Of a stretch of 28,277 nt of DNA, positions 1 through 26,319 are shown one piece after another. Numbering within the stretch: position 1 is the stretch's first letter; every line of letters starts with the position of its first letter. The stretch spans positions 1 to 28,277 of the IMG/VR virus record IMGVR_UViG_3300045988_062674. One strand, 5' to 3'. The position numbers and the translations under genes were made by a program. This DNA is from a virus. Under the pieces are notes generated by a model that worked only from the letters and a program-made list of their open reading frames with translations, was not told the DNA's origin and ran no database searches.

Positions 1-20
1 ATCATGTTGTATGTGTTTAT

Positions 21-242
21 ATGGCAGATGAAAAGTTTATTAGGTGTAATTATGATAAGAATGGTATACTCGTTATTAAGCATTATATTTGTGAATCTCA
101 ATTCAAAAGTTTATATAAAAAGTTTTTAGATAATGAAATTGATTGCTTAAACTATGAAGACGTAATGAATGGCTGCAATAAGTTTTATCTAAAATCAGAT
201 GAAGATTATAAAAAGTTTATGAGAATATTACTTGATGTGTAG
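21..242 (+). CDS. hypothetical small phage protein (73 aa)
   Basis: Open frame with balanced K/D/E/Y-rich composition. The RBS cannot be judged because the ORF is at the window edge. No family recognised. Several K-F (AAG TTT) dipeptides. Confidence 0.45.
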   Translation: MADEKFIRCNYDKNGILVIKHYICESQFKSLYKKFLDNEIDCLNYEDVMNGCNKFYLKSDEDYKKFMRILLDV

Positions 243-264
243 AAAGTTTTTTAGGAGTGATGAA

Positions 265-450
265 ATGGACGAAAATAAGTTTCCTTATAAAGAAGTTTTT
301 GTGAAGTATGATAATGTACAAATTAGTGTTGTTTGTTCTAAGATGGTTGAAAAAGTTTTTGAATACAATGCGCATGATGATGAAGATGTGCCTGTGAATT
401 ATGTTTATTATGTGAAGAAAGAAAAGTTTTCGCAGTTGTGTTATAAGTGA
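265..450 (+). CDS. hypothetical small phage protein (61 aa)
   Basis: ATG 265 lies 8 nt after AGGAG (252-256). The track ORF starts at 232 but has no RBS there. No family recognised. The 3' part overlaps convergent ORF 338..844. Confidence 0.45.
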   Translation: MDENKFPYKEVFVKYDNVQISVVCSKMVEKVFEYNAHDDEDVPVNYVYYVKKEKFSQLCYK

Positions 451-844
451 AAAGCAAAGATTTTGAGCCTGGTTTACAGATCTTAAAAAGATCCTTATTT
501 AATATGTCAATATAACACTTGTAAATTTTGAAATAATAACAGATATCTTTTATTTCTTGAATATCTGGTGTATATAACTCTTTTTTTGCTTCAGTATTGA
601 AAAACAATTGAATATCATAATTGAAAAGCTTGTCAAGATCATGCGCAACGAACAACCTCAAGTCATTTGTTTGAGCTGCTGCATACATGCATTTATTATG
701 ATTAAACTTAAAACCGTGATCTTTTAAAATTTTTTCAGTAGAAGCGCTGGGAGTCCCTAACGTTTCAACATAAATGTGCGGTTGTTTTCTTTCGTTTGTA
801 ACATAATAATTGAAATGAGTTCGTTCACGCTTCCACATTGTCAT
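338..844 (-). CDS. hypothetical protein (168 aa), last gene of minus-strand operon
   Basis: ATG 844 lies 8 nt after AGGAGG (858-853, minus strand) and overlaps the upstream gene by 20 nt. The segment LKDHGFKFNHNKCMY loosely resembles small K.WY-type domains of primase-associated proteins (weak, by eye). The last ~35 codons overlap the + ORF 265..450 and look low quality. Confidence 0.55.
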   Translation of the reverse strand: MTMWKRERTHFNYYVTNERKQPHIYVETLGTPSASTEKILKDHGFKFNHNKCMYAAAQTNDLRLFVAHDLDKLFNYDIQLFFNTEAKKELYTPDIQEIKDICYYFKIYKCYIDILNKDLFKICKPGSKSLLFTYNTTAKTFLSSHNKHNSQAHLHHHAHCIQKLFQPS

Positions 845-1070
845 TTTTAAGCCCTCCTAAAATATCCAAAATACATAAAGTATTTACAAGTTGCCAAAGT
901 TCACACGGTTTTAGCATCCATGCAATTACATCCATGCCATAACTGAGATCATATAGCCCATTTAAATGTCTATTTATTGAAAAAGGCATTATACTATTTG
1001 CCTTTAGACTATTTGCGTTGAGCTGATCAATCTTTTTTTCTACTGATTCAATATATTCTTTGTTATTCAT
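825..1070 (-). CDS. hypothetical protein (81 aa)
   Basis: ATG 1070 lies 8 nt after GGAGG. The track start at 1085 falls inside that RBS. Begins 3 nt after the upstream stop. Predicted helical; no family recognised. Confidence 0.6.
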   Translation of the reverse strand: MNNKEYIESVEKKIDQLNANSLKANSIMPFSINRHLNGLYDLSYGMDVIAWMLKPCELWQLVNTLCILDILGGLKNDNVEA

Positions 1071-1072
1071 TT

Positions 1073-1345
1073 TTAAAACCTCCATTCATTATCTTCAAAA
1101 ATCTTTATAACAAGTGTATAAAGCTCTTTACTTACTTGTTTAGAATCACTTAATAATTGATCGTAATAAATATTTATTACTTTTTCATTTTCAATATAAG
1201 CAAGATCATATATAAATGATTCGATATGATCCGCAAGACATTCATATAAAAAGTCATATACGACAAAATTACCAGAAATAAGATCATTCATATATGATCT
1301 TATTCTTGCATATTTATGCAATAATTTAACTTCTAAAAGTTCCAT
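1073..1345 (-). CDS. hypothetical protein (90 aa)
   Basis: ATG 1345 is preceded by AGGAGG (1358-1353, minus strand). Helical, Y/D/E/L-rich. No family recognised. Confidence 0.65.
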   Translation of the reverse strand: MELLEVKLLHKYARIRSYMNDLISGNFVVYDFLYECLADHIESFIYDLAYIENEKVINIYYDQLLSDSKQVSKELYTLVIKIFEDNEWRF

Positions 1346-1362
1346 TGTTTAACCTCCTGCAA

Positions 1363-1512
1363 TTAATAAATAAGTGGTAGTAAAATATTTAAAAGGCCCA
1401 ATATTATACCTATAATCAATGTAGATGTGCACGCTGCTAAATACAATTTTAAAAATGCAAGTATGAGCACCTGGACGGCGCTCATCTTTTCAAGATCTTT
1501 GCGGGTTAACAT
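1363..1512 (-). CDS. small hydrophobic membrane peptide (49 aa), not in ORF track
   Basis: Hand translation: MLTRKDLEKMSAVQVLILAFLKLYLAACTSTLIIGIILGLLNILLPLIY. The ATG at 1512 follows the stop of the upstream gene (1514-1516) after a single spacer nucleotide. It fills the otherwise empty gap in the operon. One or two TM-like hydrophobic stretches. Confidence 0.5.
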   Translation of the reverse strand: MLTRKDLEKMSAVQVLILAFLKLYLAACTSTLIIGIILGLLNILLPLIY

Positions 1513-1513
1513 G

Positions 1514-2032
1514 TTAGAAACCTTCTTTCAAGTAAGCTGAATATTGTTTTCTAGTTTCTTCTAACCAATCCATATCCCAATCACTTTTTTCATCGGTAAG
1601 CCATTGTTTGAATTCATTATCTTTTCTAGCTTCTTCTACTAACTTCCATTCTTGGAAGCTTTCCAAGTTTTCTAGATCGTCAATTGTAAAATAATCATCG
1701 TTATAATTAAAATTACCAAACAAAGTCATTCTTACAATTTCATCTGGTTCATTGCCTGCTAAACATTCATTAAGTTCATCATTACTTAATTCATAATATT
1801 CTTCATTATAGCGGTCACTTCTAAACTCAAACCATAAAGAAAGAAGTTCATCATCATACATATTTTCAAGAATTTCATCGCCAAGCGCTTCCATAATTGC
1901 GCCGTCTGTAGAATGTGCAAAATCGTCGTATTGTGTAGCCATATAAGCCACGTATTTAGCTGAAGTTTCATAAATAGATAACATTTTCTTTTTTAGCCCG
2001 TCTATGGTAGAATAGAAAAGCAATATATACAA
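1514..2032 (-). CDS. strongly acidic hypothetical protein (172 aa); candidate DNA-mimic/anti-restriction-type protein
   Basis: TTG 2032 lies 11 nt after AGGAGG (2049-2044); the alternative start is ATG 1984. By my count it has roughly 40 D/E against about a dozen K/R, plus many W/Y/F. No ArdA/Ocr motif recognised, so function is inferred from composition only. Confidence 0.6.
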   Translation of the reverse strand: MYILLFYSTIDGLKKKMLSIYETSAKYVAYMATQYDDFAHSTDGAIMEALGDEILENMYDDELLSLWFEFRSDRYNEEYYELSNDELNECLAGNEPDEIVRMTLFGNFNYNDDYFTIDDLENLESFQEWKLVEEARKDNEFKQWLTDEKSDWDMDWLEETRKQYSAYLKEGF

Positions 2033-2120
2033 GACGGGATTAACCTCCTGAATTTTGTGTATATTTGCCGTTGTTGTGAACTCCTGGAAGCGGCCAAACT
2101 TGAAAGGGGTTCACGTTTTT

Positions 2121-2348
2121 TTATTTGCTTTTGTTCATGTCTTTTTCAATCAAATCTATTATATAAGCGGTTTTACTTGGTTGTTTATCAAGCCATTTAA
2201 TAAGATCTATATTTTCTTTTTTTACTCTAAATTCGTATTTTCTGTAATTGGCTTTATTAAATTCTTTTATATATTCTATTTGATCGAAAGAACCACTTTT
2301 TTTTCTTACAATGTTTACACCTCCTAAACTTGAAAAAATGAAAGACAC
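2121..2348 (-). CDS. ribbon-helix-helix (Arc/MetJ/CopG-like) DNA-binding protein, first gene of minus-strand operon
   Basis: ...RKKSGSFDQIEYIKEFNKANYRKYEFRVKKENIDLIKWLDKQPSKTAYIIDLIEKDM matches the short RHH pattern common in Firmicutes phages and plasmids (beta strand then two helices). The start is ambiguous: GTG 2348 lacks an RBS, whereas AGGAGG (2325-2320) sits 7 nt before an in-frame ATT at 2312. Confidence 0.6.
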   Translation of the reverse strand: MSFIFSSLGGVNIVRKKSGSFDQIEYIKEFNKANYRKYEFRVKKENIDLIKWLDKQPSKTAYIIDLIEKDMNKSK

Positions 2349-2376
2349 GGTTTATAATATAAATGGTTATTTAATT

Positions 2377-2414
2377 AGGTTTGTTATTAGTGATATAGCA
2401 CTTTTAACAAACCT
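2377..2414. promoter_or_regulatory. 9-bp perfect inverted repeat AGGTTTGTT / AACAAACCT (20-nt spacer), candidate operator of the minus-strand operon
   Basis: Read directly from the sequence. Lies 30-65 bp upstream of the RHH gene start, in the AT-rich divergent control region, and is followed by a T-run on the + strand. Confidence 0.3.
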
Positions 2415-2595
2415 TTTTATTTGTGGCTTTATAAGTGTTATATCAATTTCAAAATCTAATTTGATATTTATGGATATTTTTGTTTTCATAAATATCACCG
2501 CTTTCTATTATGCGGAGTTTAACCGTGTCAACTTTATAAGTTTGACCCGTGTCTTTTGTGTAAGCTTTTTATTTAGCTTACACTTACATTATAAG

Positions 2596-2611
2596 CATAT
2601 GCATGCATATG
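2596..2611. promoter_or_regulatory. perfect 16-bp palindrome CATATGCATGCATATG
   Basis: Read directly. Located in the ORF-free divergent region, next to a 9-bp-stem hairpin GTGTAAGCT/AGCTTACAC (2557-2583). Candidate dimeric regulator site. Confidence 0.3.
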
Positions 2612-2767
2612 TCAACAAAAAATTAATAATATTTTTTTGTGCTCATTTTTTCAAAAAGCTTTTATCTTTGTAAACGTGTACGCAAGCACCTATTTATAAG
2701 GCTTTTAAGCGTGTTTGCGTTTAGTCTTATAAGATATAGTTATCAGACTTGTATATATGTACTATAT

Positions 2768-2792
2768 GGACGTGGTAAGCGTCCCTTTTTTT
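2768..2792 (+). terminator. orphan intrinsic-terminator-like hairpin (GGACG-7nt-CGTCC + T7)
   Basis: 5-bp GC-rich stem followed by seven T. No + strand CDS lies upstream to terminate. Confidence 0.35.
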
Positions 2793-2897
2793 GTGGGCGT
2801 TGCTTCAGTTCCAGGAAGACAAGTGACACGCTTAACCATATGGAACGGGTGCGCATGCGTTCTATTAATAGAGTCATGGCCATGTTATGAAACAACG

Positions 2898-2930
2898 CTT
2901 TCAACAAGTCATGTTGAAACATCTTTCAAC
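2898..2930. repeat. CTTTCAAC / GTTGAAA / CTTTCAAC triple element (mutually exclusive hairpins); also CATGTT..GAAACA direct repeat
   Basis: Read directly: 2898-2905, 2913-2919 and 2923-2930. The middle arm can pair with either flank. Lies in the GC-richer ORF-free leader upstream of HNH/terminase. Confidence 0.4.
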
Positions 2931-3156
2931 ACAATAATAAATATATGAATGTCATATGATTGAAGCCATGAACGTGGTTGTGTGGTGGTAGCTGCATAGG
3001 TTTGATTTTTAACCCTGAAAGCGCCTAGGGCTGGGATCAGATCAGCATAGACCCCCCCTATCTTTCAAAAGTTTTTTGCATTTTGGGGAACGGCGTGGGG
3101 AGTTCAAAAAAACTGGGTTATGAGCGCATGAGAGGGGGTAAAATCTGAATTTCTTC

Positions 3157-3175
3157 ATTTTGTACAGTGTACAAA
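3157..3175 (+). promoter_or_regulatory. conserved 19-nt element ATTTTGTACAGTGTACAAA, copy 1 (tandem TGTACA-G-TGTACA)
   Basis: Identical 19-mer recurs at 26824-26842. This copy lies about 210 nt upstream of the first packaging gene. Confidence 0.5.
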
Positions 3176-3270
3176 GAAAAACCGTGATATTCTGTAGTCG
3201 TGAAGATTGGAAAACATCTTCTGAACAAACAAGGTAGTTCTTGGATTGTTTCATTATTTCGTGCCCGTTG

Positions 3271-3300
3271 AAAAAGACCTGTGGAAACATGGGTCTTTTT
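3271..3300. terminator. bidirectional terminator-like hairpin AAAAAGACC...GGTCTTTTT
   Basis: A5-GACC(TGT) GGAA (ACA)..GGTC-T5 between the 19-nt element and the HNH gene. The A-run/T-run symmetry allows action on both strands. Confidence 0.45.
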
Positions 3301-3310
3301 CATATCACTG

Positions 3311-3377
3311 CATTCAAAGTGTTTACTGTTTAGATTTCCGTCCTTTCCTTTAAATCTGTTAACTAAAACTTTGAATG
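3311..3377 (+). promoter_or_regulatory. 67-nt imperfect hairpin abutting the HNH start codon
   Basis: CATTCAAAGT (3311-3320) pairs perfectly with ACTTTGAATG (3368-3377). Inner stems are TTTA/TAAA and AGATTT/AAATCT. The 3' arm ends 8 nt before ATG 3385, which has no obvious SD. Confidence 0.4.
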
Positions 3378-3384
3378 TAGCGAT

Positions 3385-3771
3385 ATGAAAAAATATTATG
3401 GTTCAGAAGCAACAAAAACAGGTGCTAGAAATTATGCTAGAAAATTTTACTCAAGCAAGGCTTGGGAAAAGAAAAGTAAAGCGTATAGAAAGGCACATCC
3501 ACTTTGTGAAAGATGTTTGAAAAAAGGTATCTATACCAGGTCGACTTGCGTGCACCACAAAGTGCACATTGACCAGGACAACTATAGAGATGTACACATT
3601 CTATTTGGCGATTCTAATTTGGAAGCGTTGTGTGACTTATGTCATGCAGAAGAACATTCCGAACGTAAACCATCTTTTGAATTTGATGAAAACGGAATGC
3701 TTATAGGATGTGGAAGGGAGGATGATGAATGCAAAAAGGAGCATGGAAAAAAAGAATCAATTCACAACTAG
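3385..3771 (+). CDS. HNH endonuclease (packaging-associated)
   Basis: CERC...CVHHKVH...NLEALCDLCHAEEH motif set (Cys pairs, HH and H-N-H) in a small 128-aa protein directly upstream of the terminase genes. Confidence 0.9.
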   Translation: MKKYYGSEATKTGARNYARKFYSSKAWEKKSKAYRKAHPLCERCLKKGIYTRSTCVHHKVHIDQDNYRDVHILFGDSNLEALCDLCHAEEHSERKPSFEFDENGMLIGCGREDDECKKEHGKKESIHN

Positions 3772-4103
3772 AGAATTTAGGCACATTTTCTCCTGAATAT
3801 TCGGTTGTGGTTGATTCACTTGCAGATGCCTTGGCCCAATACGATTCGACAATGAAGCAATGGAGAGATTCAAGTAAAGCAAATGGCTACAAATCACTAC
3901 AGATGGTTGTTGAATATACGAACAAGGGCGGTGCAACGAATTTATCGCGCTCGCCATACTACATTATTACCGTTCAATTACGTGATCAAATCATGAAATA
4001 CTGCAAAGAACTTGGCTTGTCACCTACTTCACTATCAAAGACAACAGAAGTATCCGAAAAAAAAGGTGATGAATTGGATGAGTTCATGAGCAGATTTAAA
4101 TGA
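3729..4103 (+). CDS. terS: terminase small subunit (P27-family-like)
   Basis: ATG 3729 lies 8 nt after GGGAGG. 124 aa. Matches by position and by ...GGATNLSRSPYY...LRDQIMKYCKELGLSP, typical of P27-type small subunits. Overlaps the HNH 3' end. Confidence 0.8.
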   Translation: MQKGAWKKRINSQLENLGTFSPEYSVVVDSLADALAQYDSTMKQWRDSSKANGYKSLQMVVEYTNKGGATNLSRSPYYIITVQLRDQIMKYCKELGLSPTSLSKTTEVSEKKGDELDEFMSRFK

Positions 4104-5758
4104 AATATTTAGACATTTATAAAGAACGTATTAAATCGGGTGAAGATGTAGTCGGTAAGTGGATAAAGCTTAATCTTCAATATGTTGAAAGAGGTTTAGC
4201 AAATGGAGATTTCTTCTATGATGAGAAAAAAGCAGAAATGCATATAGCGTTTATTGAAACGTTTTGTCATCACGTAGAAGGAAAAACAACAAAAGTAAAG
4301 CTTGAGCCTTGGCAAAAATATTATATTGCGTGCATATTCGGACTTGTTGATAAGAATGGAAAAAGGCAGTTTCGTGAAATACCTACGGTCATGGGCCGAA
4401 AACAAGGAAAATCATTTCTATGTGCAGGTATTGAACTTGATGTTGGATTTACATCGGATGAAGCAGGTATGCAGATATACAATATAGCGCCAAAGTTAAA
4501 ACAAGCGCAGATCATTTACAATGTTCTGTATCAAATGATGGAACACTCTAAAGCGTTGAGTCAAAGAGTGAAAAAACGTAGAACAGATATCTACATGAAA
4601 CAGAACAACTGTAGATGGGAGCCAATTGCCTTTGCATCTAAAAAATCAGACGGATTTAACCCATATTTGACAATCTTTGATGAGTTTGCAGCCTGGGAAG
4701 GGGAAGCGGGTATGAAAATGTACAACGTTATGTTGTCGGCAGGTGGTGCAAGACCTGATCCACTTTATATTCCTGTAAGTACCGCAAACTATATTGATGA
4801 AGGATTATATGATGAATTATTTGTTCGTGGAACATCTGTTTTACTTGGTACGTCTGATGAAAAACAAATGTTGCCTTTCTTTTATATGATTGATGATATT
4901 CAAAAATGGGATGATCCTATTGAATTAAGAAAAGCAATGCCAAACCTTGGAATATCGGTTTCTTATGAATATTTGCAGAATGAAATTTTAAAAGCACATA
5001 GCTCACCTACATATAAGGCGGAGTTCATAACAAAGTATGCGAATATCAAACAGAATTCAACAGAAGCATTATTCAGTGCAGAAGATATTAACAAAGTTAA
5101 AGGTGAAGAACTTAGATTTGAAGATTTTGCACATACATATGCAGTTGGTGGAATTGACTTGTCACAGACAACCGATTTAACAGCCGCATCTGTAGTTATA
5201 CGAATTCAAAAACAAGACTACATATTTACTCATTTTTGGCTTCCAACATTAAAAATCAAGGAGCTAGAAGAAAGAGACAAAATACCATATACAAGATTTA
5301 TTCAATTGGGATATTTAAGTCCAAGTGGGGAAAACTTTGTACGGTATGAAGATGTTACGGAATGGTTTGAAATGCTACGTAAGAAATACAAGATTTATTG
5401 CGTGGTCGTTGGATATGACCGTTATTCGGCTCAGTATCTTGTGGACGATATGAAGAAATACGGATACAAGATGGATGATGTTATTCAGGGTACTAACCTT
5501 ACACCAGTTATTAATGAATTTACGGGATATGTAAGAGATGGATTTGTTCATACAGGAACAAACGGACTTTTACAAGCACATATGTCTAGTGTTGCATTAA
5601 AGAAAGTTGCAGAAGACAATCGTGTTCGCATGATTAAAACTGATCCAAGAAAACATATTGATGGGTATGCATCTGTTATTGATGCATATACAGTAAGACA
5701 AAAATGGTGGGATACATTCAAGTACCGCCTTGAAAACGAGAAAAGGAAGGTGAATTAG
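4100..5758 (+). CDS. terL: terminase large subunit
   Basis: 552 aa. Walker-A-like GRKQGKS, IFDEFAAW (Walker B) and a C-terminal nuclease-like region (VGGIDLS...DGYASVIDA). ATGA overlap with terS. Confidence 0.95.
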   Translation: MKYLDIYKERIKSGEDVVGKWIKLNLQYVERGLANGDFFYDEKKAEMHIAFIETFCHHVEGKTTKVKLEPWQKYYIACIFGLVDKNGKRQFREIPTVMGRKQGKSFLCAGIELDVGFTSDEAGMQIYNIAPKLKQAQIIYNVLYQMMEHSKALSQRVKKRRTDIYMKQNNCRWEPIAFASKKSDGFNPYLTIFDEFAAWEGEAGMKMYNVMLSAGGARPDPLYIPVSTANYIDEGLYDELFVRGTSVLLGTSDEKQMLPFFYMIDDIQKWDDPIELRKAMPNLGISVSYEYLQNEILKAHSSPTYKAEFITKYANIKQNSTEALFSAEDINKVKGEELRFEDFAHTYAVGGIDLSQTTDLTAASVVIRIQKQDYIFTHFWLPTLKIKELEERDKIPYTRFIQLGYLSPSGENFVRYEDVTEWFEMLRKKYKIYCVVVGYDRYSAQYLVDDMKKYGYKMDDVIQGTNLTPVINEFTGYVRDGFVHTGTNGLLQAHMSSVALKKVAEDNRVRMIKTDPRKHIDGYASVIDAYTVRQKWWDTFKYRLENEKRKVN

Positions 5759-10407: not shown

Positions 10408-11052
10408 ATGGCAGATAAAAACAAAGTACGATTCGGTCTAAAAAATGTACATGTATGTTCTATTACAGAAAGTGCAGGATCAATTACATATGGTACGCCT
10501 ACTGCATGGAAAGGTGCTAAATCATTAACACTAGATCCAGAAGGAGATACAAATACATATTATGCAGATAACACTGCGTATTTTACAACGAATACAAACA
10601 ATGGATATTCAGGAAGTTTGGAAATGTCTGAAATCCCAGAAGAAATTGAAAAAATGATTTTCAATACAGTGACAACAGAAGAAGGTAACTTAGCAGAAGA
10701 TGCAAACGTATTGCCTAATAACGTTGCGCTTATGTTCCAATTTGAAGGTGATGTAAGCGCTACTAAACACATCTTCTATAAGGTTGTATTTGCACGACCA
10801 AATGTAGAAGGTGAAACAAAAGAAGAGAGCACTGATCCTGCTACTACATCAATGGATATTACGGCTGTTCCTGTTGAGAAAGATGATCATCAATGGGTAA
10901 AGGCAAAATGTCGTAAAGGTGACACAAATTATGAGAGTTTCTTTACAACTGCTCCAACATTACCTACTCCAAAAGCTAGTGAAATGAGCCAGAAAGAAGG
11001 TACACCGGTAGTTGTACAAAGTGATAATGGCAAGGAAGTGAGCACATTATAA
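10408..11052 (+). CDS. major tail protein (phi13/TP901-1 type)
   Basis: 214 aa. VRFGLKNVH...YGTPTAWKGAKSLTLDPEGDTNTYYADN is typical of phi13-family major tail proteins. Lies directly upstream of the chaperone pair. Confidence 0.88.
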   Translation: MADKNKVRFGLKNVHVCSITESAGSITYGTPTAWKGAKSLTLDPEGDTNTYYADNTAYFTTNTNNGYSGSLEMSEIPEEIEKMIFNTVTTEEGNLAEDANVLPNNVALMFQFEGDVSATKHIFYKVVFARPNVEGETKEESTDPATTSMDITAVPVEKDDHQWVKAKCRKGDTNYESFFTTAPTLPTPKASEMSQKEGTPVVVQSDNGKEVSTL

Positions 11053-11071
11053 GAGGGGCAACCCCCTCTTT
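11052..11071 (+). terminator. stem-loop AGAGGGG-CAAC-CCCCTCT after the major tail gene (attenuator-like, weak T tract)
   Basis: 7-bp GC-rich stem read directly, followed by only TT. Probably a partial terminator or an mRNA stabiliser. Confidence 0.3.
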
Positions 11072-11081
11072 GTGAGGTTAT

Positions 11082-11513
11082 ATGGAACAGACACTAAGTA
11101 TTGATGGTAAAAAATATAATTTATTGTATAAAGGCAAAACGGCTAGCATTTATAGAGATTATTTCAACAGAGATTTGTTAGTGGACATTCAGGAAGTGCA
11201 AATCAAATTTGGTGAAGCTATCGAAAAAAATGTTCGTGAAGGAAATCCTGATCGAGATCCTTATTTCACTTTATTACAAGCAAACGGATCTTTATTTTTT
11301 GAAAGATTAGTTTGGGTATGTATCAAGACGTATGACACATATCATGGAAAAGAAACAAAAGCGTTCCAAGATTTTGTTGATGAAATTGAAGATTATCAAA
11401 CCTATGTAATGAGCGGAGTTGTTATTCTAGAACAAATTATCAATGCAAATAAAGCAACGGTACAAGATGAATCCGATGAAGTGGTTTCAGATGATAAAAA
11501 AAAAGAAGCGTAA
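11082..11513 (+). CDS. tail assembly chaperone (gpG-like)
   Basis: 143 aa and acidic. Lies between the major tail and tape measure genes and ends in an A9 slippery run. Confidence 0.85.
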   Translation: MEQTLSIDGKKYNLLYKGKTASIYRDYFNRDLLVDIQEVQIKFGEAIEKNVREGNPDRDPYFTLLQANGSLFFERLVWVCIKTYDTYHGKETKAFQDFVDEIEDYQTYVMSGVVILEQIINANKATVQDESDEVVSDDKKKEA

Positions 11514-11698
11514 GCTACACTGATTTAGTATTAGGTGGATTAAATTTAGGATTAAAAATAGATGAAATAGAGGATATGGGCATAGGAAGATTGTTTGATT
11601 TGATTATTGCACGTGGAAATATGCAGTCCAAAGTAAATAATTCAAAAAACAAAATTCGTATTCGTAAAGCAGTCCAAAGCGACTTTGACAGATTTTAG
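11504..11698 (+). CDS. -1 frameshift extension of the chaperone (gpT-like part of G-T fusion, 64 aa)
   Basis: After the A9 run (11496-11504), the -1 frame is open to TAG 11696-11698: RSVSYTDLVLGGLNLGLKIDEIEDMGIGRLFDLIIARGNMQSK.... No RBS of its own. This is the conserved G/GT arrangement of long-tailed phages. Confidence 0.7.
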   Translation, partial: RSVSYTDLVLGGLNLGLKIDEIEDMGIGRLFDLIIARGNMQSKVNNSKNKIRIRKAVQSDFDRF

Positions 11699-11710
11699 GA
11701 GGTACTAAAA

Positions 11711-14700
11711 TTGTCAGGTTACAGTCAAGTAAGAGGTATCTCCGTAAAAATTGATGGAGATACTACAGGCTTTCAAAAAGCAATTAATAAAATAAAATCC
11801 GAAACAGCAGGATTAGATAAAACAATGTCAAAACTGAAATCTTCTATGAAATTCAACGAAGGAGATTTTCAGTCCTTTGCGACATATCAGAACTTGTTAC
11901 AAGATAAAATCAAAAGCACAACTAAGCAATTGGAAGTCTATAACAAGAAACTGATGAATTATCCAAAGACACAGAAGCAGTGGGCCGATGCGGTTTCTTC
12001 TGCTACTAAGTCTGTTGATAATTACACTCATACGTTTAATTCTTTGAATAAAGAATATACAAACAACAACAAGCAGATCAACGCATGGAAAGAAGCAATT
12101 GCAAACGGTACGCGTTCGGCAGAACAAGGTGAAAATGCTATTCAAAGATTAGCTTCACGAAATGTCACTTTAAAAGAAGCAATGGATGATTGTACTTCAG
12201 GCATTGCCGAACAAAAAAAGGTATTGGTTGATTTAGGCAGTACATACGAAGATTCTCAACGCACATATCTAGGTTTAAAAGCAGGTGCTTTAGGACTTAA
12301 AAATGAATTGGCAGGTATGTCAAATTCATTCATTTCAACGAATGAAACATTGTTAAGACTGTATGATACGTTAGGAAAAGTAAGCTCAAAAGCAGAATTT
12401 TTTGCAAATACTGTAAAGCCGTATTCTATGCTATCTTTTGCAGGCATTGCAGCCGCTACTAAGGCGGCCATTGAGTTTGAGGATGCATGGACTGGTGTTA
12501 CAAAAACAGTAAATGCAACCCCTCAACAGTTTGAAAAAATCAATGCAGGCTTAAAAAATCTTGCACAAACTACATCGAGTACCTATCAAGATATTGCACA
12601 TTATGCAGAACTTGCAGGACAAATGGGTATCCCTACAGATTCTATTGTTGGATTTACTAAAACTATTACAGAATTGGGTGATACTACAAATCTTGTTGGT
12701 GAAGAAGCAGCACAAAGTATTGCCAAGTTCTCAAACGTAATGGTTTCACAGTCTAAAAAGACGAACACATATTATTCTCGTTTAGGTTCTACAATCGTAG
12801 ACTTGGGAAATAAATTCTCTACAACCGAAGCAGATATCATGGCAATGGCAACACGATTAGGTGTTGCAGGTAAGATGGTAGGCTTTAACTCTAACCAAGT
12901 ATTAGGATTATCAACTGCATTATCTTCATTAGGAATTGAAGCTGCTGCCGGTGGTAGTTCTATTTCTAAAATGTTGAAGACAATTGATCTATCTGTTTCT
13001 ACGGGGAATAAGAAACTACAGAAGTTTGCAGAAGTGTCTGGAATGACTTCTCAACAGTTCCAAAAGGCTTGGGGAGAAGATGCAGCGGGAACATTCTTAA
13101 AGTTTGTAGAAGGTATTGGAAAATCGGCTGATGTTACAAAAACATTGGATGAATTAGGCATTAAGGAAGTACGACAAGCACAGTCAATGGGTGCTTTGGC
13201 ACAAAGTTCAGATGTATTGGCTAGTGCATTAAATGTTTCTAAAAATGCCTGGAATGACAATACGGCAATGGCAAACGAAGCAGAAAAGCGTTATGCGACT
13301 TTGAAATCTCAATTATCTCAAACATGGGAAGCTATTAAACAAGCTGGTAATGAATTAGGTCAGGCATTTACACCTACATTAACGGATCTATTAAAGATAG
13401 TAAAAAAGGCAGCTAACGCATTCTCTAATTTAGATGAAGGAACGCAACAGACAATCGCAAAGATGTTGCTGTTGACGGCAGCCGCTTATCCAACTGCAAA
13501 AGGTGTAAGTAAAGTAGCTGGTGCAACGCAAAGCGCTGTTAAGTTCTTTACTAAAGCTCATCCAAGCTTAGAAAAAGTAGCAGATGGATTTTGGGATGCT
13601 GCAAAAGCAGGAGAATTAGCAAGTACTTCTGTACTTTCTTTGGCAAAAGGTTTTGTGCTAACACATCCAGCAATCACTGCTGTTACAGTTGCACTTGGTG
13701 CTTTCGCAGGTGCTGTTGTTTGGGCGGATAAAACGCGCAAGGAAGCGATGGAAACTGCAAATAAAGAGCTTGCATATAAAGATACAGATTATGCAGTTAC
13801 ATTAAAAGTTGTTGATGGTTATGAGAAGTATGCAAAGTCAATGTCTAAAGTTAAGACAAGCATGGGTGAAATTGTAACTCAGTATACGCAAAACAACAAA
13901 ACTGCACTTCATTTGATGAAAACAATTCAAGATCTTAACGCAAAAGAATCTTTAAATGCTACACAAAAGACTATGCTTGCAGAAGCTGTTAGGGAGTTAA
14001 ATCAACTTTATCCTGATTTAGGAGTAGAGATTGATGAAAATACTGGAAAGCTAAATCTTAATGAGGATGCACATTATAGTAGTATTGATGCAATCAAAGA
14101 AAGAATCACTCAGATTCAAGAAGAAGCAAAACAAGAAGCGTTGGCAAGTATCGCAAAGAAAAATGCCGCTGCTCAATTGAAAGCGGAATTAAAGAATGCT
14201 GAGCTTACGGAAAGTATAAAAAGCACGACTGAAGCATTTAAAAAATTAAATGCAGAATATGTTGACGGTCAGTTGTCGATGCAAGATTACATGAATCAGT
14301 CTAGTGCATTGAAAGAATCAATTAATACATTATGTACGGATTTAGCAGATTCTTATACGAAATTGCACGAAACGCAGACTCAGGCTATATTGCAGTCTAA
14401 TTATTTAGAAACGCAATCATTCACCAAAATGGGTGCAACGATGAAACAGCAATATGTTGATTTAGCCGCAGAAGCTGCACAAGCTGGTATTCAAATTCCT
14501 CAGAACATTCAATTAGGAATTACAAATGGAACTGCAAATGCGGTAGAAGCAGCTAACTATATGGCTAGTTTGATGAATTTTCAACAACTTGTAGATCAAG
14601 CCGGTATGATTGGTGGTTCTATTCCTATGAGTGTAGCCAATAGTATTCTTGCAAATTGTGGAAGTATCACAGAAGCAACCAATGCCATGAACAATTTAAT

Positions 14701-25899: not shown

Positions 25900-26319
25900 A
25901 TGATTAATAGTATAGCAACGGCAGTACAAACAGTAGCAAACGGACAAAATGTATTATTCCCAACGGATAGAGTAAGAACAAAATCATGCCAATGTGCATG
26001 TAAAGGTTGGCTTGCTCATGATGTAGGAAGTGGATTATTTACATTGACGAAGCAAGGAATTTATGAAGTAGAATATACGGTAGATATTACAAGCGCAACG
26101 GTAGGAGTCGCTTCTTTAGAATTAGAACAGAATGGAGAAGCAGTAGGAGGAACAGAATCTCTATATAATGTAGCTACTGCGAGCGCATACGGAAATGTTA
26201 GTGGAGCTACATTGATTCAAGTACCTTGTGGAGCTTCTTACACAATTACGCTAGGTAATAACAGTGGTTTAGATTTATCTGTTCAGAATGCAAATATCAT
26301 TATTAAGAAGATTGCGTAG
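25900..26319 (+). CDS. stand-alone BclA C-terminal domain-like (C1q/TNF-like jelly-roll) protein (139 aa)
   Basis: FTLTKQGIYEVEYTVDITSATVGVASLELEQNGEAVGGT and the terminal NANIIIKKIA parallel FVISETGFYKITVIANTATASVLGGLTIQVNGVPVPGT and SASIIIEKVA of B. anthracis BclA (compared from memory). No collagen GXX repeats. AGGAGG RBS. Confidence 0.65.
   Translation: MINSIATAVQTVANGQNVLFPTDRVRTKSCQCACKGWLAHDVGSGLFTLTKQGIYEVEYTVDITSATVGVASLELEQNGEAVGGTESLYNVATASAYGNVSGATLIQVPCGASYTITLGNNSGLDLSVQNANIIIKKIA

Follow-up and report, generated by a model that had tools for sequence, protein, structure and literature searches.

Among the systems closest to the locus described here are the acr-aca operons, whose Aca regulators are interchangeable and include the RHH-type Aca14, with an inverted repeat overlapping the promoter (PMC13551039; PMC6765145, PMC9410906). 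Variable anti-defence genes are known to gather in regions of DNA that enter the cell first (PMC11541004; PMC12455610). Restriction is not the only possible target of an acidic early protein, since two DNA mimics of phage SPO1, Gp44 and Gp46, hit RNA polymerase and HU (PMC8208478, PMC8892312). The acidic tip of SSB is a docking site of partner proteins (PMC7145534).

We compared with these systems an operon of small genes in a window of 28,277 nucleotides (the whole stretch of DNA that was analysed). The window belongs to a temperate siphophage of Erysipelotrichaceae (Holdemanella / Solobacterium) with HNH-terminase genes. The phage is carried within one 105-kb contig, and was also found in Holdemanella and Solobacterium genomes. 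As it is temperate, expression of the operon from the prophage may occur.

Genes of the operon and the deletion at its end

We observed that the six minus-strand ORFs reported between 338 and 2348 by the sequence-only reading were present at those coordinates, and that they run opposite to plus-strand genes on both sides, as it had said (Table 1). From the acidic gene on, the genes are co-oriented and overlap or are spaced by 1-20 nt. Related loci were found in ~50 Erysipelotrichaceae phage contigs, where the six ORFs are kept. Against diverged orthologues from these loci, dN/dS (Nei-Gojobori) ranged over 0.08-0.43 across the six ORFs: 0.23-0.37 for the regulator, 0.16-0.20 for the acidic gene, 0.28-0.43 for the 49-aa membrane peptide, 0.10-0.33 for the 90-aa protein, 0.13-0.28 for the 81-aa protein and 0.08-0.12 for the N-terminal 140 aa of the last gene. 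The six ORFs are real genes, beyond chance. The earlier picture of a six-gene operon thus stood as regards the reality of the ORFs, but the last ORF is not native and two starts had to be moved. The G+C content of the operon is 29-30%, versus 31-39% in the rest of the window.

Table 1. Positions of the operon, its control elements and the neighbouring genes in the window
Feature	Position	Strand	Description or basis
Plus-strand genes, one flank	21-242 and 265-450	+
Convergent neighbour, outside the operon	265-450	+	3'-truncated 95-aa early-region gene
Truncated last gene, 168 aa	338-844	-	blastn and tblastn against relatives; junction sequences
Deletion junction	425-438		imperfect microhomology CAACTKCRAAAACT
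81-aa protein	825-1070	-	conserved backbone; ATG 1070 after GGAGG
90-aa acidic protein	1073-1345	-	conserved backbone; strong SD AGGAGG
Hydrophobic membrane peptide, 49 aa	1363-1512	-	downstream edge of swap slot
Slot gene, acidic 156 aa, PHROG 4534 family	1514-1984	-	candidate DNA-mimic anti-restriction or host-takeover protein
Regulator, 63 aa	2121-2312	-	basic, pI 9.6; RHH-like residue pattern; start probably AUU
pep40, possible small ORF, 40 aa	2367-2489	-	Lys/Ile-rich; between promoter and regulator
Inverted repeat GTGTAAGC-N-GCTTACAC	2558-2583	-	predicted transcript 5' end; conserved
Operon promoter	2588-2615	-	TTGACA 2615-2610, 16-nt spacer, TATAAT 2593-2588
Putative operator, 16-bp perfect palindrome CATATGCATGCATATG	2611-2596		fills -35/-10 spacer
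Plus-strand genes, other flank	HNH 3385-3771; TerS 3729-4103; TerL 4100-5758	+

The acidic gene had been started at TTG 2032. This extension lies in a different frame in loci with another slot gene, and the conserved start is ATG 1984, which gives 156 aa. From ATG 1984 the gene has no close strong SD, so that strong SD sequences cannot be ascribed to all the ORFs. The regulator had been started at GTG 2348, which is not conserved; as GGAGGTG-N6-ATT is kept among relatives, translation probably begins at the unusual codon AUU (ATT 2312), 6 nt past GGAGGTG, to give the 63-aa product.

Searches of Pfam, PHROG families with a function, NCBIfam and PADLOC gave no match for the operon proteins, which bears out the view that they belong to no recognisable known family. 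Eight proteins were scanned against PADLOC-DB, and none matched a defence-system model at E <= 0.1. The 49-aa peptide reaches a Kyte-Doolittle maximum of 2.43 in a 19-residue window and has a tblastn match in nearly all slot-covering loci; one locus, L021, carries a divergent 46-aa analogue. An identical copy of the 90-aa protein is indexed in 51 contig-collection blocks (23 contigs were read). Family and PDB searches gave no match for the 90-aa or the 81-aa protein. The description of three products as helical was inexact, as one of the three is beta-rich in its AF2 model.

We then turn to the last gene. Its codons 1-140 (844-425) correspond to the N-terminal domain of a lineage-specific 190-aa protein, and its final 28 codons are antisense to the truncated convergent gene, with which it overlaps by 113 nt. 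Full-length relatives all have the 190-aa gene, often followed by another 185-aa gene, and then convergent genes for a 185-aa HExxH protein and a 95-aa protein. Relative to these sister phages the window has lost ~1.45 kb, so that the 185-aa gene and the convergent HExxH gene are gone and the 190-aa and 95-aa genes both lack their 3' ends, and it is because of this deletion that the last 28 codons run antisense through the neighbour. The identical deletion is shared by contigs from at least four samples, and is therefore not an assembly artefact. The ORF at 844-338, listed earlier as an ordinary operon gene, is a fusion made by the deletion and no native gene.

The 190-aa family is narrow (full-coverage matches are >= 72% identical), and in almost all homologues of >= 185 aa a KKKKK linker precedes the terminal [DE][DEA]F(EF)PF. 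Residues 166-190 have an AF2 pLDDT < 50, as expected of a disordered tail. The model of the last gene (pLDDT 73.6, tail disordered) had no match in a fold search. The intact protein thus has the features of an SSB tip, namely a disordered linker, acidic residues and a hydrophobic-Pro-Phe-COOH end, and the phage SSB of a related locus itself ends in SEDLPF; the window copy lacks the tail. The resemblance suggests that the intact 190-aa protein docks on host SSB-interacting enzymes. Such a tip, conserved past a Lys-rich disordered linker and in SSB a docking site of partners (PMC7145534), could also belong to a replication or recombination accessory operon, in which the 190-aa protein recruits or blocks host SSB partners and the other products are cofactors. 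We consider this very unlikely, since homology to replication or recombination families was searched for and none was found, the genes lie outside the replication module and in the opposite direction, and the window phage, without the tail, is yet present in several samples.

Promoter, regulator and their covariation

The operon promoter is the sole 12/12 match to TTGACA-N16-TATAAT within 1-4200, and related loci that have a perfect match (12-20 kb each) have only one. All of the related loci with the perfect promoter (23/23) carry the RHH-type regulator. The promoter spacers fall into five sequence classes, and these are paired one-to-one with five regulator alleles, NYRKYE[FI]RV, TYKRYIFQV, TYKSYAIRI, TYKRYIVQI and HYKRVTVLV. 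The alleles differ mainly in a predicted beta-strand segment that has the alternating pattern Y-x-x-[YV]-x-[FIV]-x-[VI] and precedes two conserved helix-like segments. In class A both arms of the spacer palindrome shift together, from CATATGCATGCATATG to CATATACATGTATATG. The sample consists of five classes from related phages, and the palindromic arms are short in classes B-D.

The DNA separating the spacer palindrome from the regulator gene recombines freely among relatives. Members of class A, and likewise those of class D, differ in leader (type a or b) and in slot gene, so the pairing of regulator and spacer does not come from linkage alone. That allele and palindrome covary despite this recombination argues for a regulator that represses its own promoter through the spacer palindrome as putative operator. 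The suggestion that the cassette is autoregulated is in this way supported by the covariation.

Two other elements lie near the promoter. The inverted repeat, placed where the transcript is predicted to begin, occurs as a single copy per locus at a constant place, with a conserved stem and a variable loop. Its RNA folds into a 9-bp stem (-12.8 kcal/mol, z = -6.06; 0/200 shuffles were as good), and it would serve either as a second operator or, in the mRNA, as a stabilising 5' stem-loop. The small ORF pep40 has a gene call in many related contigs; loci with leader b have an unrelated 36-aa ORF in its place, and HTH-type loci a basic one of 55 aa. The dN/dS of pep40 is ~1, from 7-8 substitutions, and so it is given here as a possible gene.

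The regulator is RHH-like by its residue pattern. The label had been given by the sequence-only reading, and no profile search returned it: the regulator and eight diverse homologues matched no RHH family of Pfam at E <= 1, sequence and profile searches of the PDB did not find RHH, and the PHROG matches were solely to uncharacterised families (E >= 0.006). A homologue with 39% identity (E = 8e-9) was found in an analogous operon of another phage. Between relatives the regulator type is swapped, and its place is held by the RHH-like gene or by a divergent HTH protein of 68 or 80 aa. As in Aca systems, the regulator gene lies in the operon, and the putative operator, an inverted repeat, lies within the operon's own promoter; known anti-defence cargo, ArdA, is found in sister phages (14/35), while the cargo of the window is uncharacterised.

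Toxin-antitoxin systems commonly contain autorepressors of RHH type and commonly contain small hydrophobic toxins, and many type II operons of this kind, like ours, have the regulator gene first. We therefore weighed whether the operon is an abortive-infection or toxin-antitoxin cassette in which the 49-aa membrane peptide is the toxin and the small DNA-binding protein its antitoxin. This we regard as hardly credible: a swappable gene of 156-166 aa separates regulator from peptide, the peptide and the regulator type (RHH, HTH68, HTH80) assort independently, Pfam and PADLOC gave no toxin-antitoxin match, and four further conserved genes follow.

The swap slot and its acidic occupant

The slot is limited by a conserved leader upstream and by the membrane-peptide gene downstream. 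We surveyed it in 35 IMG/VR loci related to the window, and it held ArdA in 14, the acidic 156-aa protein in 11, a 144-aa protein in 6, an acidic 160-aa protein in 3 and other content in 1. The ArdA of the sister phages belongs to PF07275 (E = 2.8e-35). In loci with ArdA the downstream genes are as in the window and the regulators are interchangeable; homology between the window and one such locus, L006, picks up again precisely at 1514. Lying next upstream of the membrane-peptide gene, the slot is a site of cassette exchange. Presence/absence polymorphism in relatives, which had been proposed as a check, was thus found both here, where the slot gene is swapped, and among the distal genes, which are variably present.

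The acidic 156-aa protein has 41 D+E against 12 K+R (net -29, pI 4.05). The slot's ArdA (166 aa, net -31, pI 4.05) and the acidic 160-aa protein (net -32, pI 4.05) are of like size and charge, and the three acidic occupants (156-166 aa, net -29 to -32) are mutually unrelated in sequence. The 144-aa protein (net -2) and the pair of genes in L021 are not acidic, so the slot is not kept for DNA mimics alone.

We evaluated the acidic 156-aa protein as a member of the ArdA family (PF07275) and rejected this. Neither it nor any of 73 family members hit ArdA in Pfam at E <= 1. Compared with the syntenic ArdA by BLASTP it scored E = 0.83, the family profile and ArdA had an hhalign probability of 0.2%, and a PDB profile search matched neither ArdA nor anything else. 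Its AF2 model is of moderate confidence (pLDDT 76.8; 1/5 models good), with a predicted fold that is mostly helical with one beta-hairpin, and it had no Foldseek match in PDB or BFVD at E <= 0.001. No sequence, profile or predicted-fold likeness to ArdA, Ocr or any solved structure was seen in these searches. The protein is a candidate DNA mimic that would block restriction-type defence.

It does belong to a family of its own. It matches phrog_4534 (E = 2.9e-10), the acidic 'DDYFxFNGYGNLxS' family, over a conserved core of about residues 37-115, and the family comprises 334 clusters at 50% identity (E <= 1e-3). Grass_4, encoded within the 4,208 bp annotated as terminal repeat in Bacillus phage Grass, and AJA42331, found among the Tre genes of the Staphylococcus myophage phiIPLA-C1C, are true family members (hhalign E ~3e-18), and the probability was 98-99% for these two and for a paralogue in siphophage L051. 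SBSphiJ phages also carry the family. In L051 an 11-gene opposite-strand operon between HNH/TerL and early genes holds two family members and two RHH-like genes. Among the GenBank matches listed, 21 of the 30 family matches lie <=12 kb from a record end.

The occurrence of the family in the Grass terminal repeat and among Tre genes recalls SPO1, whose terminal redundancy holds host-takeover genes including those for Gp44 and Gp46 (PMC6873191, PMC8208478, PMC8892312). In a host-takeover module the acidic DNA mimic would hit RNA polymerase, HU or another nucleoid protein, as Gp44 and Gp46 do, and the rest would redirect host physiology; the strong negative charge agrees with this, and a link to host DNA metabolism is hinted at by the SSB-like tail of the 190-aa protein. 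We nevertheless hold such a module to be unlikely, as the strongest hint of function is that the acidic protein trades places with ArdA, which inhibits Type I R-M, and the PDB profile search, which should cover Gp44 and Gp46, gave no match.

The opposite orientation, the operon's own sigma-70 promoter, the lower G+C, the membrane peptide, the variable distal genes and the presence of the phage in a larger contig and in bacterial genomes would all fit a prophage 'moron', that is a superinfection exclusion, defence or fitness trait expressed in the lysogen, with the membrane peptide as effector and the regulator keeping expression low. This is improbable, however: PADLOC gave no match, ArdA alleles would be senseless as host defence, the proteins are small and without enzymatic domains, and relatives of the acidic protein are found in Herelleviridae as well, within or next to the terminal-repeat genes. 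The Herelleviridae myophages are known as a strictly lytic group. Of the functions offered earlier for the cassette, anti-defence has thus gained from the 14/35 loci in which ArdA shares the slot, but no support was found for defence or exclusion.

A proposed self-repressed counter-defence operon and its relation to known systems

Since sister phages hold ardA where the window has an equally acidic protein, we incline, at somewhat better than even confidence, to a self-repressed, Aca-like anti-defence / host-takeover cassette of a temperate siphophage. Host RNA polymerase would read the sigma-70 promoter (2615-2588) without phage factors, presumably early, and the transcript would open with the stable 5' hairpin. 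The 63-aa regulator, the first certain product, would then bind the spacer palindrome and close its own promoter, leaving a short burst, as the covariation suggests. Judged from slot equivalence, size and charge, the acidic protein may act as a DNA mimic against Type I R-M or BREX-like systems, and the 49-aa peptide and the 90-, 81- and 190-aa proteins would be its co-transcribed conserved partners. The intact 190-aa protein may use its tip to engage host SSB-interacting enzymes; in the window phage the 1.45-kb deletion has cut off this tail and taken the distal genes. We conjecture that the operon sits at the end of virion DNA that enters first, which, if so, would explain its inverted orientation.

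A wider reading is possible, although we think it doubtful. Here PHROG 4534, which has no Pfam entry, solved structure or fold match, would be a structurally novel DNA-mimic anti-restriction family of Firmicutes phages, carried on first-entering DNA (terminal repeats in Herelleviridae, inverted operons by the terminase genes in siphophages), and the block behind it (membrane peptide and 90-, 81- and 190-aa proteins, the last with its SSB-tail mimic) would be a second counter-defence/host-takeover machine plugged into the host SSB interactome.

As Aca-style self-repressed anti-defence operons are already known, the value of the locus lies in new members rather than in a new principle. It offers a natural 'swap experiment', in which related gut phages exchange ArdA, the acidic 156-aa protein or at least three alternatives under interchangeable putative autorepressors, and a short ranked list of candidate anti-restriction/anti-defence proteins for Erysipelotrichaceae, a group for which we know of none. 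It also flags a widespread uncharacterised family (Grass terminal repeat, Staphylococcus myophage Tre genes, SBSphiJ phages), and the allele series of regulator and putative operator is a ready specificity set for a small DNA-binding protein.

With the early genes in the terminal repeats of Herelleviridae (SPO1; Twort-like Tre) the operon shares arrays of small uncharacterised genes and strong early promoters, and true members of the acidic family occur there (Grass_4, AJA42331). Those are, however, large myophages with long terminal repeats, whereas the window is from a temperate siphophage with an inverted operon beside its HNH-terminase genes. Hypervariable clusters of small genes that include ArdA likewise mark the leading regions of plasmids (PMC11541004) and, in Autographiviridae, the region injected first (PMC12455610); these anti-defence islands are placed and oriented for expression on entry, whereas the entry order of the window is conjectural, and its promoter is an ordinary double-strand sigma-70 promoter as against a ssDNA promoter.

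Compared with ArdA (PF07275) and Ocr, the acidic protein occupies ArdA's slot and is close to it in length (156 versus 166 aa), net charge (-29 versus -31) and pI (4.05), but without similarity in sequence, profile or predicted fold, its model being mainly helical with one beta-hairpin.

The acr-aca operons (Aca14, PMC13551039; the HTH-type Aca1 and Aca2, PMC6765145, PMC9410906) share with the locus a strong constitutive-type promoter containing an inverted repeat, a small DNA-binding protein encoded in the operon with variable cargo adjoining it, and the substitution of RHH and HTH regulators between related elements. Their regulators differ from that of the window, which has no Aca, Pfam or PDB profile match and whose repression is predicted. 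Their cargo is anti-CRISPR, whereas here the cargo of known function is the anti-restriction protein ArdA, in sister phages. Finally, aca is usually distal in these operons, while the regulator gene of the window is promoter-proximal, and four extra conserved genes lie behind the cargo.

Genes of the operon and the deletion in the window

The six minus-strand ORFs at 338-2348 were found in the window as the sequence-only reading had described them. We fetched 50 related loci, mapped the operon genes in them by tblastn, and estimated dN/dS against diverged orthologues (Nei-Gojobori). The values were 0.08-0.43 for all six ORFs, indicating genuine protein genes under purifying selection. The G+C content of the operon region is 29-30%, below that of the rest of the window. 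The regulator had been assigned a GTG start at 2348, but neither this codon nor the upstream in-frame GTG/ATG codons are kept in relatives. What is conserved is GGAGGTG-N6-ATT (2310-2325), so translation of the regulator probably begins at the AUU at 2312, 6 nt after GGAGGTG. The conserved start of the acidic gene is ATG 1984. A split-SD hairpin that would place AGGAGG 2049-2044 near this ATG was rejected, its fold being no better than shuffles (z = -0.13).

We observed that the window is without ~1.45 kb relative to every full-length relative (the missing segment is 10921-12372 of the related locus L003). The break, at 438-425, sits in a 14-nt imperfect microhomology. The deletion took the tail of a 190-aa gene, a 185-aa operon gene, a convergent 185-aa gene with an HExxH motif (DUF6782-like, E = 4e-4) and the 3' end of a 95-aa convergent gene, whose truncated remainder is 265-450 on the plus strand. 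The distal 185-aa operon gene belongs to a broad family without annotation, as seen in a homologue search. The ORF 844-338 is indeed present, but its codons 1-140 come from the 190-aa gene and are fused to 28 terminal codons read antisense through 265-450, leaving two convergent ORFs that overlap by 113 nt. The same fusion protein occurs in contigs of at least four samples, and the deletion is therefore a natural variant. The operon is real, and the window's copy of it is a deletion variant. A different deletion was seen in the relative L049, where the 90-aa gene is fused to the 185-aa gene.

The intact 190-aa protein is confined to this phage group. It was predicted by AF2 to be beta-rich with a disordered tail, and Foldseek of the model against PDB gave nothing at E <= 0.001. 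Nearly all full-length homologues examined (L006 10502-11074; P0307-P0426) end in KKKKK...[DE][DEA]F(EF)PF, with the Lys-rich linker before the C-terminal tip predicted to be disordered. This tip resembles the acidic tip of SSB (the phage SSB in L051, a different siphophage, ends SEDLPF), which is a docking site for partners (PMC7145534). Judging from this motif, the intact protein may carry an SSB-tail mimic; the SSB-like tail is lost from the window's copy, which is cut at 425. A rival explanation is that the operon is a replication accessory.

The 49-aa peptide is strongly hydrophobic and was detected in nearly all loci covering the variable position upstream of it. The 90- and 81-aa proteins had no relatives of known function in Pfam, NCBIfam, PHROG or PDB sequence/profile searches. 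A toxin-antitoxin pair is another rival reading of the operon; no operon protein gave anything above noise in Pfam, NCBIfam or PADLOC.

An exchangeable slot and its acidic proteins

Between the conserved leader and the 49-aa membrane-peptide gene lies a slot that carries different genes in otherwise collinear phages. We surveyed the 35 IMG/VR loci covering it. The occupant was ArdA in 14 (PF07275, E = 2.8e-35; PHROG 'anti-restriction protein'), the window's acidic 156-aa protein in 11, a 144-aa protein in six, an unrelated 160-aa acidic coiled-coil protein in three and a pair of small genes in one. When the window was compared with the ArdA-type locus L006, homology resumed exactly at 1514, the peptide-gene start, at 98.6% identity. 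ArdA, the window's protein and the 160-aa protein are of 166, 156 and 160 aa with net charges of -31, -29 and -32, all with pI 4.05, and are unrelated to one another by BLASTP and hhalign. The 144- and 160-aa proteins had no PDB match in sequence/profile searches.

The window's acidic protein matched PHROG 4534, which has no function assigned (E = 2.9e-10). An exhaustive profile search placed 334 clusters at 50% identity in this family. None of 73 members had a Pfam domain, and PDB sequence/profile searches matched no solved structure. The AF2 model (pLDDT 76.8, one of five models confident) consists of helices and one hairpin, and Foldseek of it against PDB and BFVD gave nothing at E <= 0.001. 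For the distant family contexts in IMG/VR, alignments were too divergent for a pattern search, and three single-protein scans found none.

A GenBank tblastn with a family member returned 71 phage records, including 47 Bacillus and 21 Staphylococcus phages. Among the 30 matches listed, 21 lay no more than 12 kb from a record end, several of them in duplicate. The family member in Bacillus phage Grass, Grass_4, falls within that phage's annotated 4,208-bp terminal repeat, 1.5 kb from the genome end, and the phiIPLA-C1C member sits among Tre (terminal-repeat-encoded) genes. L051 carries two acidic-family paralogues together with two homologues of the small regulator; all four are in an opposite-strand operon of 11 genes that separates HNH/TerL from the early genes. 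The terminal redundancy of SPO1 carries host-takeover genes, including DNA mimics (PMC6873191, PMC8208478, PMC8892312), and in a rival reading the acidic protein would be a mimic that serves host takeover, with RNAP or HU as its target. We regard the window's acidic cargo as a candidate for a new DNA-mimic anti-restriction protein.

Promoter, spacer and regulator

The promoter (see table) is a perfect match that is unique in each related locus having one, and all 23 such loci carry the RHH-like type of regulator. The palindrome CATATGCATGCATATG fills the spacer between -35 and -10. We observed five sequence classes of spacer, matching five regulator alleles whose main differences fall in a single alternating segment (NYRKYE[FI]RV, TYKRYIFQV, TYKSYAIRI, TYKRYIVQI and HYKRVTVLV). 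In class A, both palindrome arms change together. The 270 bp between promoter and regulator have two unrelated forms with different small ORFs, and three forms of the gene that follows the regulator occur across the promoter-bearing loci. Both vary within classes A and D, so the pairing of promoter and regulator survives recombination, which argues against simple linkage. Together, these covariations are good indirect evidence for autorepression, with the regulator bound to the spacer of its own promoter. The regulator had no PDB match by sequence or by an 8-member profile and no RHH profile match in Pfam, so its earlier assignment to the RHH type stands as a residue pattern only.

The hairpin at the predicted 5' end of the RNA is kept across loci with a variable loop. 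Its palindrome was considered as an operator shared with other promoters and was rejected, since it occurs once per locus. Downstream of the promoter lies a 40-aa ORF (2489-2367) with a dN/dS of ~1, for which many relatives have a gene call.

Alternative regulators are divergent HTH proteins (68 or 80 aa) with a basic 55-aa ORF behind them, and the RHH-like and HTH regulators occur in mixed combinations with the slot genes. In the HTH-type relatives, this very basic ORF of 55-56 aa (L006 9042-9212; also L024, L040, L043 and L048) has a strong SD, reads MAKYKRSKKPMSRRDRKKREKKER... and then a hydrophobic helix, and replaces the window's 40-aa ORF in the promoter-slot interval.

Positions of putative control elements and neighbouring genes in the window
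Feature	Position	Strand	Remark
Perfect TTGACA-N16-TATAAT promoter	2615-2588	-	
9-bp hairpin	2583-2558	-	predicted 5' end of RNA; -12.8 kcal/mol, z = -6.1
~100-nt element	2649-2748	+	
Terminator-like hairpin	2768-2784	+	
28-nt inverted repeat	3296-3323/3365-3392		89% complementary, 41-nt loop; ends inside first HNH codons
HNH endonuclease	3385-3771	+	
Small terminase	3729-4103	+	
Large terminase	4100-5758	+	then portal, S78 protease and capsid on + strand
Amidase endolysin	right end of window		

Genome setting and comparison with known operons

The window is a segment of a low-G+C siphophage genome. Its large terminase has at most 48% identity to any GenBank phage, and 1-3400 had no megablast match among GenBank phages. 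Proteins of the region also turned up in a Holdemanella biformis genome, a Solobacterium MAG and many contigs from human-gut metagenomes. One 105-kb carrier contig indicates that the phage is temperate; that the operon is a moron expressed in the lysogen is a further rival reading. The early regions of sister phages differ in accessory genes (Sequestin-domain protein, PF21825; Dam methylase; dUTPase; HNH genes; L003 18213-18659 is among the variable genes), so the phage group has more than one variable accessory locus. Near the lysis genes, a 139-aa protein (25900-26319) has a BclA C-terminal (C1q-like) domain (PF18573, E = 1.8e-10). The HNH and small terminase ORFs share 43 nt (3729-3771).

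The ~750 bp upstream of HNH (2650-3385) hold no convincing ORF, and their G+C is higher (36-38%). Both cos and the late leader may lie in this stretch. The contig ends of relatives did not locate cos; they scatter over the variable region and the upstream stretch, and look like assembly breaks. Copies of the ~100-nt element, ~77% identical, precede both the late (HNH-terminase) region and one early-region gene and are oriented with the main transcription (L003 ~13528-13626; same place in L001, L002 and L006). Its sequence includes AGCCT-N6-AGGCT, with a T-run after it, and GATAA-N-TTATC. The element probably serves rightward transcription as a promoter, operator or terminator common to both places, and stands back-to-back with the operon promoter. 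The 28-nt inverted repeat could be a regulatory or packaging-related structure. Rfam on 1-3500 gave sub-threshold miRNA noise only, likewise for this repeat.

We conjecture that a cos in the non-coding 2650-3385, with the operon end entering first, would explain the inverted orientation beside the packaging genes. Plasmid leading regions and the T7-like leading end would then be parallels (PMC11541004, PMC12455610). A tblastn of the acidic protein against plasmids found no match, which leaves the plasmid link without homology support.

The anti-defence role guessed from sequence is the best-supported option among these readings; like every function proposed here, it is inferred. Aca-regulated anti-defence operons (PMC6765145, PMC9410906) share with the window a strong promoter, an operator within it and a small regulator inside the operon. 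They likewise combine an RHH or HTH regulator (an RHH-type Aca14 was recently described; PMC13551039) with variable cargo, and ArdA is among the cargo in this phage group. On this match of five elements we interpret the locus as a self-repressed operon serving counter-defence, a system of the already known, Aca-regulated kind.
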